Assembly: GCF_018350175.1 (NCBI RefSeq)
Contig: NC_058368.1
Coordinates: forward strand, 18,106,001 to 18,170,000
Direction: 5' to 3'
DNA length: 64,000 nt
Source of the DNA: Felis catus
Taxonomy: Eukaryota
The translations under genes and the position numbers were made by a program. Positions 1 through 61,829 of this stretch are shown here, in pieces. The notes beneath the pieces were generated by a model. It saw only the letters and a program-made list of their open reading frames with translations, was not told where the DNA came from and did no database searches. Numbering within the stretch: the stretch's first letter is position 1; each line of letters begins with the position of its first letter.

Positions 1-1863
1 CCTGTCTTGCACAAAAATGGTCACATGTATTCTAAGTAAACATAATGCAATTTCATTGAGGGTTTTTAAATGTAGGTGAGAGGCAAAAAATGAAACTAAC
101 ACCATCCTCTGTAACAGCCAGATGTATGTACTTGATATTTAAGAGGCTGATAGCACAGAAAAGAAGGTTTTAAAGCACAACTATACATTTCTCATTCTGA
201 GATGAACATACTGACTAGGTTACATTAATTAGCTAGTTAAGATGTAAAACTGTATTAAGGAATCCCAAAATTCTGACTCTCCGTAAAAGCAACAATAAAA
301 CTGGCCCCCAAGAACCACCGAAAACAACTTTTTTTAGAACTCTAGAAACTAGCTCACAGCAAGTCAGGTTATACTTAAAAACAAAAGCTGAGTCTTGATA
401 ACAGCATGCTTTGTGGAATTTTAAGCTAGCCCTGTGCCTTGTTCCCAAGCTTAGCAGTAGCCTTTTGCAAAGAATGTTTTTATTTTATCTGTCTCATGCC
501 TACCCAGAAGATTCCTGTTCTAAAAGCTTATATTTATCTCATCTAACTTGGAACATTTCCAATGCTAAAGTCACCACCCCAGGATAGGGGGAGAGTTAGG
601 GGGCGTACATTTCTCTTCTGCCTGAAGCAATAGGATGAACAATAGACTAAGCAAAAAGCTTAGGAAGGGAGGTTAGCAGTGAGATCTCCGTAAAGGCATG
701 GAAAAACCCAGACATATCCTTGGAAATCTAGAAAGCTATGTATGTGTTGTTTAGGACTGCATGCCCAGAAAAGACCAGAGAGACCCTAAGCTGTCACCTC
801 TGGTTGCATCTTGAAGGCATGCCCCAACACTCATCACAGCACACCCCAGTCAAGACTGGAAGGTTGTTTTGGTTCCAGACACGTAAGGAAATCTCTGTCC
901 AGTTGTTAGCAGACTGCTAAGCTAATGGACCACTTTAAGTGGTCACACACAACAGAGCAATTGTCAACGTTACAGGATTCATTTAGCAAAATCACACACA
1001 ACAACAGCTACAAAAAGCACCGACCACAGCGAACTCTGAGGTGCAGGGCAGGAGAATCCAATTTCAGCAGAATGTGTGCATTGTAATGTTCCAAATGCCC
1101 ACTTTTCAAGAAAAATTGTTTACAAGATACCTAAAGGACAGCCAGAACACGGGGAGGGTGGGGGGGAGCACTCAGTAGAAACTATCTCTGAAGAAGCCCA
1201 GATGTTGGACTTAGTAGACAAAGACTTTAAATCGGCAATTTTAGATGTGTTCAGGGACTGAAGGAAGGTATGAGGACAATGCCTCCTCAAACAGAGACTA
1301 TCAATAAAGAGCTAGAAATTGGAAAAGATGTTTTCATAAAGTTATAAACTTATCAAAATTATAATTTAAACTCATAATTTTATAAAAAGTATAAATATCT
1401 CGTCTGGGGTTGAAAATTATAATTGAAATTTAAAAATCCACTATAGGAGTTGAACAGCTGTGAACAGTCAGTAAAAAGAATCAGCAAAGTTGAAGTTAGA
1501 TCAGTAGAGATTATGCAATCTGAGGAACAGAAAGAAAAAAGAATAGAAGAAAGTGAACAGGGCCTCAGAGACCTGTGAGATGTTATCAACAATATTCACA
1601 CAATGGGTGTCTTGGAAGGAAAAGAAAGGGGAAAGGGGACAAAAAAATATTTGGAAGAAATATTTTTTTCAGAAAGTGTACAAGTTTGTTGAAAATTTAA
1701 TAACACACATTTAAGAAGTTTACCAAGCCCAGATAAAGGTACACACTGAGACACATCACGATTAAATTATCAAAAGCCAAAAACTCAGAGGGGACTTTGA
1801 AAGCAAAAAGAAAGATAACTCATCATATACATGTGATTTACAATAAGATTATCACGATGCTTT

Positions 1864-1995
1864 GAGGCACCTGGGTGGCTCAGTCAGTTGAGCATCCATC
1901 CGACTCTTGATTTTGGCTCAGGTCATGATGCCACCAGGGTCATGGGATCCAGCCCCGTGTCGGGCTCTGTGCTGAGTGTGGAGCCTGCTTGGGGT

Positions 1996-2043
<48 letters not shown>

Positions 2044-2058
2044 TTCCTCTGCCTGTCC
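1864..2058 (+). mobile_element. Can-SINE (SINEC_Fc2-like) inserted in L1 ORF1
   Basis: GAGGCACCTGGGTGGCTCAGTCAGTTGAGC tRNA-like head, ACTCTTGATTTTGGCTCAGG segment and (CT)n tract. Confidence 0.93.
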
Positions 2059-2146
2059 TATATATGTGTATATATATAGGATATATATATATAGGACATA
2101 TATATATAGGACATATATATATATATATATATGGATAGGATAGGAG

Positions 2147-2197
<51 letters not shown>
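2059..2197. repeat. Compound (TA)n microsatellite with GGA interruptions
   Basis: Directly visible; occupies the position of the SINE's A-rich tail. Confidence 0.95.
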
Positions 2198-2673
2198 ATT
2201 ATTACAATTCTCATCAGAAACCTATAGAGGCCGAAAAGCATTTCTATTGCCAGTAAAACTGCATGTGAAAATACAGGCAAAATTAAGACATTTCAGGATA
2301 AACAAAAACTATCACACCTGCCCTAAAGAATGTTAAAGGTAGTCCTTGCAGCTGAAATGAAAGGATACTAGACAGCCACTTGAATTAACAAAGAAAGGAT
2401 AACAAGGAAGCAGAAGACTCGGGCAACACTTGTAAACCAGCTAGACCTAATAGACATCAATGGAGCACCCCACCTGATAGCACAGTACACATTTCTCTCA
2501 AGTCCACATGCTCTCTGCTTTCTCCAAAGCAGACTGTGTGTTAGGCCCCATCTCAAGTCTCAGTAAATTTTAAAAGATTGAGATCATGCAAAGTATCTTC
2601 TCCGACTACAATGACACAAAATTAGAAACCATTAACAAAACGAAAATAAATAGGGAAACTAAACAACATAATC

Positions 2674-2907
2674 TTTTTAAATGTTTCTTATTTATTTTTG
2701 AAAGAGAGAGAGCATGAGCAGGGGAGGGGCAGAAAGACGGACACACACAATCTGAAGCAGGCCCCAGGCTCCGAGCTGTCAGCACAGAGCCCGATGGGGT
2801 GGGGGGGCTCAAATGGGGGGGGGGGGGCTCAAACTCACGAACCATGAGATCGTGACCTGAGCTGAATGAAGTAGGACGCTTAACCGACTGAGCCACCTGG
2901 GCGGCCC
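2674..2907 (-). mobile_element. SINEC_Fc (felid Can-SINE)
   Basis: Reverse-complement head and AGGCTCCGAGCTGTCAGCAC internal motif. TSD TAAACAACAT at 2660 and 2908. Confidence 0.93.
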
Positions 2908-3879
2908 TAAACAACATGCTCTTAAATAACCGGTGGGTTAGAAAGAAAATAACAAAGTAATTAGAGAAAACTGAGATGTATGAAAGTTTGGTATAAAACC
3001 CCATACCGATACTTACGGTATGTAGCAAAAACAGTGCTCAGAAGAAAATGGATAGCTTACATTAAAGAAGAAATAAATTAACCCAACTTTACACCTTAAA
3101 AAAAAAAACTAGAAAAAGGACTAAACGACACTGAAAACAAGAAGAAGGGAATAATAAAGATTATGACAGACATAGAGAAAATATAGAATAGAAAAATAGT
3201 GTTTCAGCGGCTGGATGGGCTAGCTAGCCATTATGTAAGGCATGTAGAGATGTGTTTGAATACACTTGTGAAAAAGACGCTATACACTAGTAATGAACAA
3301 TCTGAAAATTAAAGTAAGAAAACAATTCCATTTACAGTAGCACCACAAAGTGTAAAATACTTAGGAATAGATTTAACCAAGGAAGTGATATACTTATCCA
3401 CTGCAAGCTACCCAACACTGTTGAAAAAAAATTAAAGATGGCCCAAACAGATGGGAAGGCATTTTATGTTCATGGATGAAGACTCAGTATTAAGATGACA
3501 ATCTTCCCCAAATGAATCTATGGATTCAATGCAGTTCCTATCAAAATGTCATTTGCCTTTTTTTTTTTTTTTTTTGATCCAGAAATAGACAAGCTGATCC
3601 CAAAATGTATATGGACATACAGGGGACCATGAATAACCAAAACAATCTTGAATCTTCCCAATTTTAAAACTTACAATTCCACAGTTATCAAAACAGTGTG
3701 ATATTGACATAAGGGCAGACATAAATGGGATAGAATTTGGAGTTCAGAAGTAAAATCATCCATCCGTCGTCAACTGATTTTTTTACAAGGCTGCCAAAAC
3801 CCATCAATGGGGAAAGGATACTATTTTTAGCAAATGGCACCAGAAAAGCTGGGAATCCACACGCAAAAAGATCGAACCT

Positions 3880-3984
3880 GGGGCACCTGGCTGGCTCTGT
3901 CAGTGGGGCACACAACTCTTGATCTCGGGGTTGTGGGGTTGAGTCCTACTTTGTAGAGATTACTTAAAATCTTTAAAAAAAAAA
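3880..3984 (+). mobile_element. Short Can-SINE (SINEC_c-type, no CT tract)
   Basis: GGGGCACCTGGCTGGCTC head and TAGAGATTACTTAAAATCTTT plus poly(A) end. Confidence 0.85.
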
Positions 3985-4743
3985 TTGAAGTTGGACCCAT
4001 ATCTCATGCTGTATACAAAAATTAGCTCAAATGGGTCAAAGATCTCAATGTAAAAGTTAAGAACTAAAACGCTCAAAAGGAAACATAGGTGTAAATCTTT
4101 GTGACTTTATATTAAATAGGCAACAAATTTTCACCTTCTGTACAATATAGATTTTAAAATAGATAGTAAAGTGCAGAGTCACATAATAATGTTGAATACT
4201 TGGAGCAGGTCAGTTTCTTTCTCTTACTTAGTTAAATATACTGCTTAAATAATATAAATACACAGATCTACGTATGGTTACTTTGGGGCTATAATTATAT
4301 TTCAGCACAACTATCTTGAAAATATGGATTTATCTCCCCTTAGAATGTGCTTCTGCAGATAGATGATATAATTATGTGTTTTCAGATCCACATATGAAGT
4401 TACTATAAATTGGCTAAGAAATAAATATAATAATCATTTAAGTCTATCAAATTCAACTAACATTGATGTCAAAAATAAAAACTTTACTAGCACTTAAAAA
4501 AAAACCTTCCTAGAAGTGATAATTTAGTACGTAAAAATAAATGGTACTAAACTTATGAAGATAAGGTGAATTGGGAAAATGTTTGATAGGTCTGAAAATA
4601 TCCATATGAAATATTTGCATGCTTTGAGAGGATATATCATCTTTTGACAAAGTGTTTTTTCATAGTATGTGTTAAACAGTTAAAGTCCCAGCCAATCCAC
4701 GATTTTGAAAGTTCATAGCTTTGCCAGCAGGAAATTAATTTAC

Positions 4744-4816
4744 TTGAATATTCTCTTTATTTCCATCAATGTCAAGATCTGAAATTCCACCAGAGCACAC
4801 ATTAGTTTTTTGCCTA
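4744..4816 (-). CDS. Candidate second coding exon, (S)RQKTNVCSGGISDLDIDGNKENIQ
   Basis: Acceptor TTCTCATCATTCTTTTAG, with an in-frame NAGNAG alternative TAG 3 nt later. The 73 nt are open in exactly the phase left by exon 1 (AG+T = Ser). Donor is CAA|GTAAAT; implied intron 1 is 572 nt. Confidence 0.5.
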
Positions 4817-5388
4817 CTAAAAGAATGATGAGAAGCAAGAGCGATTTTTCTTATGCAAGCCAGCATTAAAGTTAGGTCTCATGTGTTGAGATGCCATGAG
4901 CCTGTCTAGGGATATCATATGTATGATCCTAGTTTGGGGAATTCAGACAAGAGCTGGCTTCTATTTGCAAGCCAGGCCTCAGATGGAATATAAAAGGGTA
5001 ATGAGGAATACACTGAGGTAGAAAAATGGATTTGCCTAGGAAGCCAAGTCTTAAAAAAGGAAACCAAAGATTTGGTTGGTATTTGACAGACTCGCAATCT
5101 GTATTTGATAGAAGACCAGGAATTTTTGTCGCTTCAAAACTGTGTTTCAGAACTCCTTTTCATAAACAACGATGTAAGCAAGCAAGCATTCAAAAGCCAG
5201 CAGGCTGCCATTAAACACAACAAAAGCGAAAAAACCAGGTCCAGTTACCCTGCCTTCATTCTCAATCCTACAAAGAAATCACTCACCCACCGAGTGTTAA
5301 CAGGTTGATGCAATGAATCATACGATAATAAATCCTAACGGAATTTGCAGAAACCGTGCAAATGTGCAAATACACTCCTGTGACTTAC

Positions 5389-5426
5389 CTGTGATTTCTC
5401 CTTGCAAGTGGTAACTCGTTAGCCAT
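5389..5426 (-). CDS. Candidate first coding exon of an unidentified spliced gene (MANELPLARRNH plus 2 nt)
   Basis: Minus strand reads CACC-ATG-GCT-AAC-GAG-TTA-CCA-CTT-GCA-AGG-AGA-AAT-CAC-AG|GTAAGT. It has a strong Kozak context (A at -3, G at +4), an open frame and a consensus donor. It lies in unique sequence between two L1 blocks. Confidence 0.6.
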
Positions 5427-5429
5427 GGT

Positions 5430-5444
5430 GTTGCTCTTGGTAAC
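5430..5444 (-). promoter_or_regulatory. RFX X-box motif
   Basis: Minus strand GTTACC-AAG-AGCAAC fits the RFX consensus GTNRCC-N(0-3)-RGYAAC and ends 3 nt before the candidate ATG. Confidence 0.55.
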
Positions 5445-7398
5445 CACAGGTATCAGGAGATGATGCAGAATTAGTATTGCCTCCTACTTTGTGTGTGATA
5501 CAGAGGGTGAGACTCCTGCCGTCTCTGTCGTGAATCAAATTTTTGTGTATGTGGATACGCTGCTGGATCTTTCTCGCATTCTTTCCGTAGGTTTACTTAT
5601 TCCTGCACCAATAACAAATATTTTAATATTATAACTTCACAATCTTGATATTTGGTGGGATGTTCCATTTTGTCTTTTTCATTTAGAATGCCTCAGGTGT
5701 TCTTGGCTCTTTGTGGTTCCACTTGGGTTTTAAAATCAACTTCTCCTTCGCAAACAGCCATTGGGAATATGGTTGGGATTACTTGGACTCTATACATCGG
5801 TTGGGGTGCAATGAATATCTTTATGAAGGTTAATAATCCAAATCATGAACACGTTAAATTTTCCCTACATTGCAGTAGTTTTAGTGCTCTTCAAAAAAAA
5901 TGGATGTTTCTTCATATAAATCTGAGAAAACTGTTATATTCATTCCTAAGGAACGTACAGTTCTTGTTCATAGGGTAAATGGTATCTATTTTTTAATTAC
6001 ATTTTAAAATTATCTGTTGCTGTGTATAGAAGAGGAATTGATTTTTCTATATTGATTACCTTAAATCTAAGCATTTAGCTCACTTACATCTAATGATTTG
6101 GGGGGGGGTTCTATATAGACATTTATATTATTTGAGACTAGATGACAGTTTTGTTTCCTTCTTGACAATCTTTATGCCCTTCATTTCTTTTGTTGTTTTG
6201 CTGTGCTGACTAGCTAGGACCTCCAGCCCAATGTTAACCCAGAACAATGATAATGGACACTTTTTGTAATTCAGATTTTAAAGATGTTCCCAGTATCTCA
6301 CCATTAGGAATTACGTTTGCTGTAGGTTTTCAGTAGATTAATCAGAGAGCATCAAATAATCATATGGCTCTTCTCTTTTTTAATGTTAATGTGGTAAATG
6401 ACATGTGTAGTTTTTCTGATCATAGATCACTCTTGCATTCCTGGGATGATCCCAGACCGATTGTATTCTTTTCTCTTTTTGTACAAACCACTGGATTTAG
6501 TTTTGTTTTATATATTGACTAGTGATCTTGCTAAATTTACTAGTAAATTCCAAATGGTATTTGTAGATGCTTGTGTAAACTTTGTAAATTCAGTCACACA
6601 GTCTATGATGAATGACAGTTTTACTCTTTCTTGTTAGTCTTTCTGGCTCTATGACACTGTGCAGTGTCCAACCAGTACAACACGTACAGTGTTGAATAGA
6701 AGTGGTGATAGCGATCACCCTTGTCTTTTTCCAAAATGTGAGGAAGGAGGGAATGCTTTTCCTAGGCTGATATTTTGTAAATAAGCTTTATCAAATTAAG
6801 AAAGTCCCCTTCTGTCCCTGGTTTGTTATGATTACTTTAAATCATAATGAGTATTGAATTTTGTCAAATGTAGGTTTTGTTTTTTGTTTTTAGGTAACTA
6901 TAGTCTCCATCCCCCTTTCTTTGCTTAATGCGGAGAATTTCAAATGTCAAAACAACTTTGCATTCCCAGAATAAACCCAATGGTTATAAAGAACAATCTT
7001 TTTTATATTTGATTTATTTATATTTTATTTATAGTTTTTCCTTTATGCCCATGGCAGATTGCCCTGTAATTTTCCTTTCTTTTAATATCTTTGTCAGGTT
7101 TTGGTAGCAAGATTGTACTGACCTATTAGTACATAATCTCTTTTTCTCCTATCTGGAATAGTTTGTGTAAGATTGTTGTTACTTCTTCCTTAAGTACTTG
7201 GAAGAATTCCAAGAGCAGCCAACTTGTCTAGAGATGTCTTTGTGAGAAGGTTTAAATTTTGGATTCAATTTTTAAAATATATTTAAGACTATTCATATGG
7301 TCCACTTTGTCTTGTGTCAGTTTTGATGAATTCTGTTTTTCAAGATATATGTCCATTTCATCTAAATTTGTCATAATGTTCTCCTTAATGTTCTTATC

Positions 7399-7429
7399 TT
7401 TAAAAAAAAGTTTATTTATTTTGAGAGAA

Positions 7430-7476
<47 letters not shown>

Positions 7477-7614
7477 CCTAAGCAGGCTCCATGCTGTCAG
7501 CACAAGAGCCTGAGCCCAATGCAGAGTTCAATCTCAGGGAACCGTGAGATCATGACCTGAGCCAACATCAAGAGTAGGAGGCTTAACCAACTAAGTCACC
7601 CAGGCACCCCCCCC
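7399..7614 (-). mobile_element. Can-SINE (SINEC_Fc2-like)
   Basis: (GA)n tract, GAATCCTAAGCAGGCTCC and reverse head CCCAGGCACCCC. Flanking repeat CTTATCTTT. Confidence 0.92.
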
Positions 7615-7819
7615 CTTATCTTTTTTAATGTCTGTGGACATGGTATTAATAATTTATTCTGTCTTTCTTGATTAGTCTTGCTAAGAGTTATGAACTTTGT
7701 TAGTGTTTTCAAGGAGTCTGGTTTTGACATGGTTGATTATCTTTACATTTCATTGATTTTTTGCTCTATTTTTATTATTTCCTTCCTTTTACTTTGTTAT
7801 TTGCTCTTCATTTTCAACC

Positions 7820-59678: not shown

Positions 59679-61829
59679 TGGGGGCTTGGGGGGTGGGAAA
59701 CTAAAGTAAAGCCTTGCAAGAATTAAAAGGGAGTCCTGACAGATTTCCAAATCCCTGTTCCAGTGCCTTCCTGGGGCCTTGTGTTATCCTTGCCCTTGAG
59801 TTCTGAGCCACAACCCTGGAGCCTTACTCACAGATAAACCTGAATTCAGTGTGCTTAAGATCACCTTTCAATCCAAGTGAAACAATTGCTCAAAGAAATT
59901 TGTCTTCCCAGGCAGGGCATTTCACATTCAGCTCTTTAATCCGTGCCATGTGTCATAAACACAGTGAAACATTGATGTAATTATGTGAAGGACAGAGTGG
60001 AAATTAAAAGGAGGAAACGCGGTCTGGTGGTTAGATTCACAGACCAAATGTCAGGAGTTTTGTTTCTATTTTTGACATGACCCTGGGGACTCAGCCCTTG
60101 GCTCCCTGGTGTCACCCTTAGAACTCAAGATCCTAGGTCTATCTCCTACCTAAGTGAACATAGCTTCTGATACTCTGGGACCCCTTTGATGGCAGAGGAT
60201 ACCCTTGAAAGTGGAGTCATAAGCCCAAGCAGATTGAAAAGCTAGTTTCATAGTTGGCCCATACTTCCTTGTCTACAAAATGAGGACAGCATAAATCACT
60301 CCAGTTGGGGCCAGTTTCAATTATGGGAATCAAAGCCAACCTACTTCTGATCTTGTGACATACTTACCAGCTCAAGACAGGAAACTTGGTGTTACGGGAC
60401 TGACGGTTTTTTCTGTATATGTGACTAGAGACAAGTGTTCTTTTTAAATTCTGCCCTCCTACTTCCATAATAAGATCACTTGCCTTTCAAAACCATGATG
60501 TGGCAGCACTTTTTAGTCCAAAATCCTGTATTTTTGCTATGAGAATTTTCTCACTGGCTGAAAAAAAATCATCGCATGGTCCTACTTACAGATAATATGA
60601 TTGTCTATGTAGAAAGTAACCCCCTCCAAATAAAATACTTACGTATAAATTAAGCAAAACGTGTACAGGGTCTCTATACTGAAAGTTATAAAATGCTGAT
60701 AACAGACAAGAACAAGAGACATCTTGTACTCACTGATGGGAAAATCTAATACATCATGTAGTAAAGATATCGATTCTCCCTAAATTGATCGACAGGTTTA
60801 ACACACTTCCTATTAAATACCAGCCAAAGTTTTGTACAGATGTGAACAACCTGATCCTAAAATTTTTATATAGAGATGCAAACCCTAGCATAGCTGAAAT
60901 TATCCTGACAAAGAAGAATAAAGACAGGACTCAGACTACCCGCTGTTAAGGCTTGTAGTTGAGCTATAGGAACAAAGACAGCGTGGTCTGGGCAGAGGGA
61001 GAGATATAAACGTCAATGGAACAGAATTGAGGACCTAAGTACGGAACCACACAAACATGCTCCTTCGATTTTTTTTTTTTCAAGAAAAGTGGCAAAGCAT
61101 TTCAATGGAGGAGAAGAGCCTTTTCAGAAAATGTTACTGGGGCAACTCGACATCCCTAGGTTAACAAAAACAAAAACCCTCAACCCTACACCTCACACAT
61201 TACACAAAATTAATTCAAAACAGATCACTGCCTTAAAAACAAAGTGTAACGTTCTAAAACTTTCAGAAAAACACTTAGGACAAAATCTTCAGGATCTGAA
61301 GCTAGACAAAAAGTTCTTAGATCTGATGCCAAAAGCATGATCCATAAAAGAAAAAAAATAATAAAATGGACTTAATCAAAATTTAGAAGTTTTACTCTGT
61401 GAAAGACCTTCCTAACAGGATGAAAACACAAGCTGCAGACTAAGAAAGAATATTTGCAAACCACACATTGACAAAGGACTAGTATGTAGACTATATAAAG
61501 TACTCTTAAGACCCAGTGGCAAAAGAAAACCAAATAATCCAAATAAAAAATGAGCAAGAAACATGAGCAGGCATTCCATCAAAGGGGATTTACAGCAAAT
61601 ACACATATGAAAAGGCACTCAGCATCCATAGCTATTAGGGAAATGAAAATTAAAAGCCTCATGAGATTATGACTACACACCTATCAGAATGGCTAAAATT
61701 TGTAAAATAAAATAAAAGCATCAAATGAGGGATATGAAATTGGATCATTCATACATTACTGGTGGGAATTTAAAATGACAGAGTCACTCTGAAAATCATT
61801 TGACAATTTCTTATAAAATGAACTATTCA

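Follow-up and report, generated by a model that had tools for sequence, protein, structure and literature searches.

A perfect X-box for RFX, a regulator of cilia and sperm genes, stands on the minus strand of a small single-copy island beyond the 3' end of the cat Golgi gene COG6, 41 nt from a splice donor that matches the consensus perfectly. Our best reading of this arrangement, held tentatively, is that a short non-coding RNA convergent on COG6 starts here under RFX control. Either such a small non-coding RNA start or a mere regulatory site is more likely than a new protein gene, and the X-box is the least chance-like part of the candidate. The window, i.e. the whole 64,000-nt stretch of Felis catus DNA that was analysed, corresponds to G000:C1:18106001-18170000 in the genome; shorter positions below are counted from its first letter, and eight-digit positions along the contig. 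The features on which the analysis turns are the following.

5430..5444, minus strand: perfect X-box GTTACCAAGAGCAAC, a palindromic consensus match
5401..5454, minus strand: three X-box-like sites from a motif scan, with starts at 5454, 5444 and 5415
5389..5426, minus strand: exon-1 portion read from the sequence, from Kozak-like ATG to perfect donor, 38 nt
4817..5388, minus strand: candidate intron 1, 572 nt, GT-AG, predicted from sequence
4744..4816, minus strand: candidate exon 2, open in phase; 73 nt, or 70 nt with the better-scoring AG at 4813
4106..5546, no strand: single-copy island of ~1.4 kb between two old L1 remnants
1459..4105 (approximate), plus strand: old L1 ORF1/ORF2 remnant, antisense to the candidate and sense to COG6
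5547..7809 (approximate), minus strand: old L1 ORF2 remnant in the orientation of the candidate transcript
18017096, plus strand: COG6 first exon, from felid COG6 protein mapping
18102411-18102560, plus strand: COG6 last coding exon, from felid COG6 protein mapping

The X-box cluster and the candidate exons

The site at 5444-5430 is identified as an X-box by the sequence GTTRCC-N1-3-RGYAAC, which we take to be the RFX consensus. Perfect matches numbered two in 184 kb against 0.31 expected (Poisson p = 0.04); the second, at 61133-61146, has a Kozak-free context beyond it. Both outer sites of the cluster (5454 and 5415) carry two mismatches, the one at 5454 overlapping the perfect site, and the background at up to two mismatches amounts to 138 sites in 184 kb on both strands. 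Genome-wide, an X-box with RNNATGG within 30 nt was found 410 times, as compared to 83 times for the reversed control, an approximately fivefold excess. X-boxes of this kind consequently lie mostly above background, and the motif in the candidate is probably real. A scan of 274 nt ahead of the ATG detected no TATA, CRE or MYB motif, and the one forkhead-like match in that interval falls inside L1 sequence.

The Kozak ATG, the 38-nt exon ending in CAG/GTAAGT, the 572-nt intron and the 73-nt in-phase exon described in the original prediction were all recovered where it had placed them, and the joined 37-codon peptide is identical. The minus-strand ATG at 5426 lies within CACCATGG, and the perfect donor follows position 5389. 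The exon-2 acceptor, TTTTAG/TAG/, offers two usable AGs and hence an exon start at either 4816 or 4813, while the exon-2 donor, CAA/GTAAAT, is weak. Joining exons 1 and 2 keeps the frame open for 37 codons; the unspliced frame stops after 13. Scored with approximate weight matrices that were checked on 15 COG6 donors and 15 COG6 acceptors, the exon-1 donor (8.8) is level with the best of the 15 COG6 donors, the exon-2 acceptor (2.0 at 4816, 4.4 at 4813) exceeds 8/15 and 10/15 COG6 acceptors, respectively, and the exon-2 donor (1.3) falls below 14 of the 15 donors. The idea that exon 1 belongs to the interior of a longer RNA starting further upstream was rejected: no acceptor within 300 nt scores above 1.0, and the exon that the best one would open is closed in all frames. 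As no good acceptor is present upstream, exon 1 would be a first exon, if an exon at all. An origin of exons 1 and 2 from L1 was likewise discarded, their similarity to L1 being no higher than that of shuffled sequences.

The 184 kb hold, on both strands, four perfect donors, two of which close an open Kozak exon and one of which, the candidate, also has an in-phase second exon; with a relaxed donor threshold, two to three such exon chains appear among 23 donors. An X-box with AGGTRAG at 25-55 nt was found genome-wide 36 times with the donor pointing outward vs 26 times inward (p = 0.13), and RNNATGG followed the X-box at 4/36 of the outward-donor sites vs 4/26 of the inward controls, as counted by eye (Fisher p = 0.71). 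Neither a Kozak ATG nor an outward donor nor an in-frame second exon exceeds chance by more than a small margin, if at all, in the vicinity of X-boxes. Four of the other 35 outward-donor sites, picked for having an ATG, were inspected. One of these look-alikes is CFAP126/Flattop, and the other three gave no Pfam match in 134 open segments. The latter (L020, L021 and L022; G000:C1:192463741, C16:49286773 and C17:25996358) present an X-box, an ATG and a strong donor in the same layout, with no Pfam match within 10 kb. With the thresholds applied to the candidate, at least two in-phase second-exon candidates were present within 10 kb at 5/5 loci, the candidate included, and such candidates occur within 1 kb at 3/5; at CFAP126 the in-phase candidate within 1 kb differs from the Pfam-supported exon. 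In combination, these controls indicate that the X-box carries most of the signal and the donor some, with little contributed by Kozak context and phase.

In CFAP126/Flattop (L019, G000:C42:63525501-63535500; Pfam PF22611), as in the candidate, an X-box is followed within 70 nt by a Kozak ATG, a first coding exon of very small size and a strong donor. However, the downstream exons of CFAP126 match Pfam strongly (E 8e-23 and 9e-8), whereas the candidate has neither a downstream Pfam match nor a homologue and lies less than 9 kb before COG6. The RFX regulation originally proposed is upheld as far as the motif, a probable RFX element, and the recurrence of the architecture at CFAP126 carry it; the architecture is legitimate but not diagnostic.

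COG6, the flanking L1s and the search for further exons

COG6 lies to the left of the window on the plus strand, where felid COG6 proteins could be placed one exon after another, at 93-100% over most of them. The ATG of the candidate, at 18111426, falls 8.9 kb past the COG6 stop, on the opposite strand and facing COG6. AATAAA signals on the COG6 strand, either of which may be the one used, are found at 18103425 and 18103798. Since COG6 ends 8.9 kb leftwards, a longer leftward gene would either have to stop within ~7 kb, most of it repeats, or run antisense into COG6. Between exon 1 and the COG6 last intron, minus-strand donors with a score of at least 6 number three in 27.4 kb, which is not above the flanks.

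A unique island of ~1.4 kb between L1s had been described, and this was borne out: the sole genome match of 4100-5520 is its own position, and L1 remnants lie on both sides. The right-hand L1 can be matched down to 5668, with a weak collinear extension to ~5547, and thus ends ~100 nt before the X-box, leaving little unique sequence upstream. At ~5067-5165 on the minus strand, within candidate intron 1, a weak similarity to L1 ORF2 was observed (score 41 vs 30 for the best of 30 shuffles), and given this similarity the island may not be wholly repeat-free. The downstream L1 is indeed antisense to the candidate, which had been taken as a sign of an intron, but the argument is weak, as the L1 on the other side is oppositely oriented. 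Two further L1 copies were seen in the surroundings. A full-length-looking L1 occupies G000:C1:18088676-18093528 in the COG6 last intron, on the COG6 strand (L003 2676-7528, plus), with an ORF1 of 326 codons and an ORF2 of 1303 codons (stop to stop), both open; the element is young and possibly active, and stands in the sense orientation, the less common of the two. At L005 4326-5942, the 3' part of L1 ORF2 is present in two opposite orientations (minus 4326-5520, plus 5535-5942), a split that resembles the pattern of a 5'-inverted insertion.

Leftwards, a candidate exon 3 of 38 nt (G000:C1:18103761-18103724, minus) is open in phase and ends in GAG/GTAAGT (score 7.8). It lies antisense in the COG6 3' UTR, between both COG6 AATAAA signals; its acceptor, at -3.4, scores lower than 15/15 COG6 acceptors and owes its pyrimidine tract to the reversed COG6-side AATAAA at 18103798. 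A candidate exon 4 has its acceptor at 18099375 (score 5.3), followed by 39 codons, TAA, 9 codons, TAG and 126 codons, that is, a frame of 175 codons with two stops (L002 3377-2853). The 126-codon frame (L002 2850-3227, minus) runs antisense in the COG6 last intron and has no family or named homologue; a 69-nt part of it matches G000:C17:52134033 at 83%. With its stops read as X, the exon-4 frame was searched against 1.84 billion representative proteins, and three were returned: P0002 (99% identical), P0004 and one unrelated repeat protein. P0002 and P0004 are near-identical single ORFs, each called on an unannotated contig. P0004, which evidently comes from a close relative and was called with TGA read as tryptophan, leaves the exon-4 frame after ~23 codons and shows three frame changes, as a neutral intron would be expected to show, or possibly by sequencing errors on its single contig. 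Exon 4 with the 126-codon ORF was rejected as a gene body on account of its position in the COG6 last intron and its change of frame in the relative. No Pfam family exceeded the cut-off for the exon-4 frame, and Pfam gave no match in 62 minus-strand open segments of at least 48 codons across 18098001-18112200 (62 out of 83, the other 21 overlapping tested ones). A minus-strand chain of micro-exons (16, 97 and 38 nt) nested in COG6 introns was dismissed as well: donor density is not above the flanks, the 97-nt piece reads by eye like old L1 ORF1 in another frame, and two other donors fall in SINE-like sequence. The 16-nt micro-exon-like stretch (G000:C1:18085404-18085389, minus; L004 9404-9389), a prediction in the COG6 last intron, pairs a strong acceptor (6.2) with a perfect donor (8.8).

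Protein relatives, which the original prediction had proposed to seek, did not appear. The 47-residue frame containing exon 2 was compared by word index with 5.8 billion protein clusters. Among proteins of 84-2000 residues it yielded nine candidates, none at E <= 10, and among those of 25-83 residues no candidate. A matched control, comprising 24 residues of a COG6 exon and 18 of intron, found 111/116 candidates, including records from Panthera onca and Prionailurus iriomotensis. As the control works, an annotated felid protein with exon 2 would very probably have shown up; relatives sharing fewer than three 5-residue words are missed by the word index, and COG6 is highly conserved, making the control less informative on fast-evolving relatives. 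Atlas gave no usable match for exon 2 or the 125-residue ORF, a blank that is uninformative there. No retrocopy or paralogue of the candidate was found in the genome, Rfam returned no match at gathering score in L014 and L015, and degenerate-pattern scans of metagenome contigs gave no match.

RNA cover and published RFX data

The exon-4 stretch is contained in 20/24 listed runs, for which the tissue is not on record and most of which are only guessed to be RNA. As this stretch is COG6 intron, these matches are explained by COG6 and provide no evidence for the candidate; and runs chosen by a COG6 intron stretch were probably not selected for testis or airway. Four of the 20 runs, from four studies, were mapped over 4150-6000 as assembled contigs, which cannot show transcript starts, and gave 11 contig pieces at a depth of 2-7. 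At the junction from 5389 to 4816 or 4813 neither a joint nor a loose end was seen in 4/4 of these low-depth runs without recorded tissue. In runs X2, X5 and X7 one contig each passes unspliced through the exon-2 acceptor, and the exon-1 donor is bridged by no contig with 31 letters on both sides. Low-depth unspliced cover in X2 and X5 extends also over the intron and the flanking L1; X16 has no contig over 4150-6000 and is uninformative. This cover fits read-through beyond COG6 or DNA carry-over, and a testis- or airway-specific spliced RNA is compatible with it. The X2 and X5 contigs both break within ~20 nt of the exon-1 donor (5370-5409), with a 15-nt overlap and a 17-nt gap, unlike a splice branch; low depth explains the breaks, though not their coincidence. 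One X7 contig (depth 3.4) carries two plus-strand A>G differences, at 5792 and 5796, attributable to plus-strand RNA editing, alleles or errors and at most a weak hint of plus-strand RNA.

Most functional X-boxes are found no further than 500 bp from a start site, and promoter activity is higher in enhancers with an X-box (PMC5838959). In mouse germ cells ~3,000 RFX2 peaks were reported, 977 of them in promoters and two thirds outside (PMC4498915), and Cog6 is absent from the 4/4 supplements of that study examined. Among the rows listed from PMC7498320 Table S8, all RFX1 and RFX3 peaks of mouse ependyma that carry the Cog6 assignment fall between +340 and +354 kb. Likewise, none of the listed supplement rows assigns an RFX2 peak to Cog6, and a peak at the orthologous site could be assigned to another gene or stand outside these rows. 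The candidate resembles the non-promoter RFX2 sites (PMC4498915) and the X-box enhancers (PMC5838959) in having a consensus X-box in intergenic, repeat-rich DNA with no annotated start nearby. Unlike these, it has a perfect donor and a usable acceptor downstream of its X-box, where binding is predicted.

The non-coding RNA gene linc00598 lies between human FOXO1 and COG6 (PMC5004135). The candidate is like linc00598/TTL in its position past the 3' end of COG6 (towards FOXO1, according to that paper), where spliced non-coding transcripts are known, a likeness by neighbourhood only. In contrast to the candidate, linc00598 is expressed in cell lines, and the description given in PMC5004135 makes no RFX link. 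A literature search on COG6 antisense or convergent transcripts, testis, Felis catus and cat testis lncRNA, with subscription papers mostly outside its reach, showed nothing on the locus among the papers listed.

Competing readings and their meaning

The non-coding RNA reading takes as its basis the motifs, their spacing, their position relative to COG6 and the absent protein match. In germ or multiciliated cells, a dimer of RFX2 or RFX3 would occupy the X-box cluster at 5454-5401 and drive weak, tissue-restricted minus-strand transcription. U1 would then take the perfect donor after 5389, leading to splicing to the acceptor at 4813 or 4816, and the product would be a short non-coding RNA directed towards the COG6 3' end, perhaps overlapping COG6. 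The 37-codon frame would be incidental, its Kozak-like CCATGG presumably being usual content of X-box-like sequence. RFX binding, initiation at this site, splicing, the tissue and any effect on COG6 are thereby postulated. In favour of this model stand the excess of X-boxes with an ATG (410 vs 83), the three clustered sites, the promoter activity described in PMC5838959, a donor level with the best COG6 donor and, at 4813, an acceptor above 10/15 of COG6. The same holds for the presence of linc00598 in the human COG6-FOXO1 interval (PMC5004135), orthology not being implied. It is preferred to a coding interpretation by the missing exon-2 protein and Pfam match, and by an ATG that is no commoner beside outward donors. 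Against it count the zero junctions in 4/4 runs, outward donors only slightly more frequent than inward ones, the non-promoter peaks of PMC4498915, the distant Cog6 peaks among the rows listed from PMC7498320, and the lack of TATA, CRE and MYB motifs upstream. A somewhat less probable but serious reading is that the X-box is an RFX enhancer-like site or a chance motif, that splice signals and frame are due to chance, and that the island RNA stems from transcription reading past the COG6 poly(A) signals without splicing, or from carried-over DNA. The near parity of outward and inward donors, the in-phase second exons at 5/5 loci, a donor density not above the flanks, the unspliced cover in X2 and X5 and the A>G hint in X7 all agree with it. 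It accounts poorly for a perfect donor 41 nt from a perfect X-box and for a full chain seen a single time in 184 kb when the thresholds are strict, and the runs were probably not selected for testis or airway.

Coding explanations are considerably less probable. The claim that a ciliary or testis protein gene has its N-terminus here and continues leftwards found little support, given that COG6 ends 8.9 kb away on the other strand, that no protein with exon 2 was found, that the exon-4 frame is broken and that no junction was seen in four runs with tissue not on record; a conserved ciliary gene of this kind is unlikely. Small testis genes are frequently missed by annotation. The original proposal lives on as a young, lineage-restricted, RFX-controlled protein gene in tail-to-tail overlap with COG6. 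This gene would join exons 1 and 2 to the 38-nt exon at 18103761-18103724, and perhaps to that at 18099375, to encode a hydrophilic protein of at most 88 residues. An in-phase exon 3 with a donor of 7.8, a next acceptor of 5.3 with 39 open codons, and the first-exon layout common to CFAP126 speak for such a gene. An exon-3 acceptor of -3.4 whose tract is a reversed COG6 AATAAA, the broken frame in P0004, and the lack of an annotated felid protein, a retrocopy or a paralogue speak against it and make it improbable. Slightly less probable still is a decayed gene (unitary pseudogene), of which a 5' remnant would be left, the later exons having been eroded or interrupted by L1. Here the TAA and TAG that lie in the exon-4 frame ahead of its 126 open codons would count as disabling changes, as suggested by the single frame of 175 codons with two stops (L002 3377-2853). 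Yet that frame finds no intact vertebrate protein among 1.84 billion representatives, no Pfam family over the cut-off and no usable Atlas match.

The most far-reaching version, as improbable as the young gene, is an unannotated RFX-driven gene of the cat lineage beside an old L1 breakpoint, with short exons placed antisense to the 3' UTR and the last intron of COG6. Its product would be a sperm or cilia protein of 37-88 residues without a database relative, and its transcription could curb COG6 3'-end formation in germ cells. If coding were true, the locus would show in compact form how a new gene can grow out of an RFX promoter already in place while overlapping a housekeeping gene. Neither a Kozak-like ATG nor an in-phase second exon is diagnostic of a gene when found next to an X-box, and similar calls need caution. 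Should the locus contain no more than an RFX site or a small non-coding RNA, it is one of hundreds and of minor importance, save for a possible germ-cell brake on COG6.
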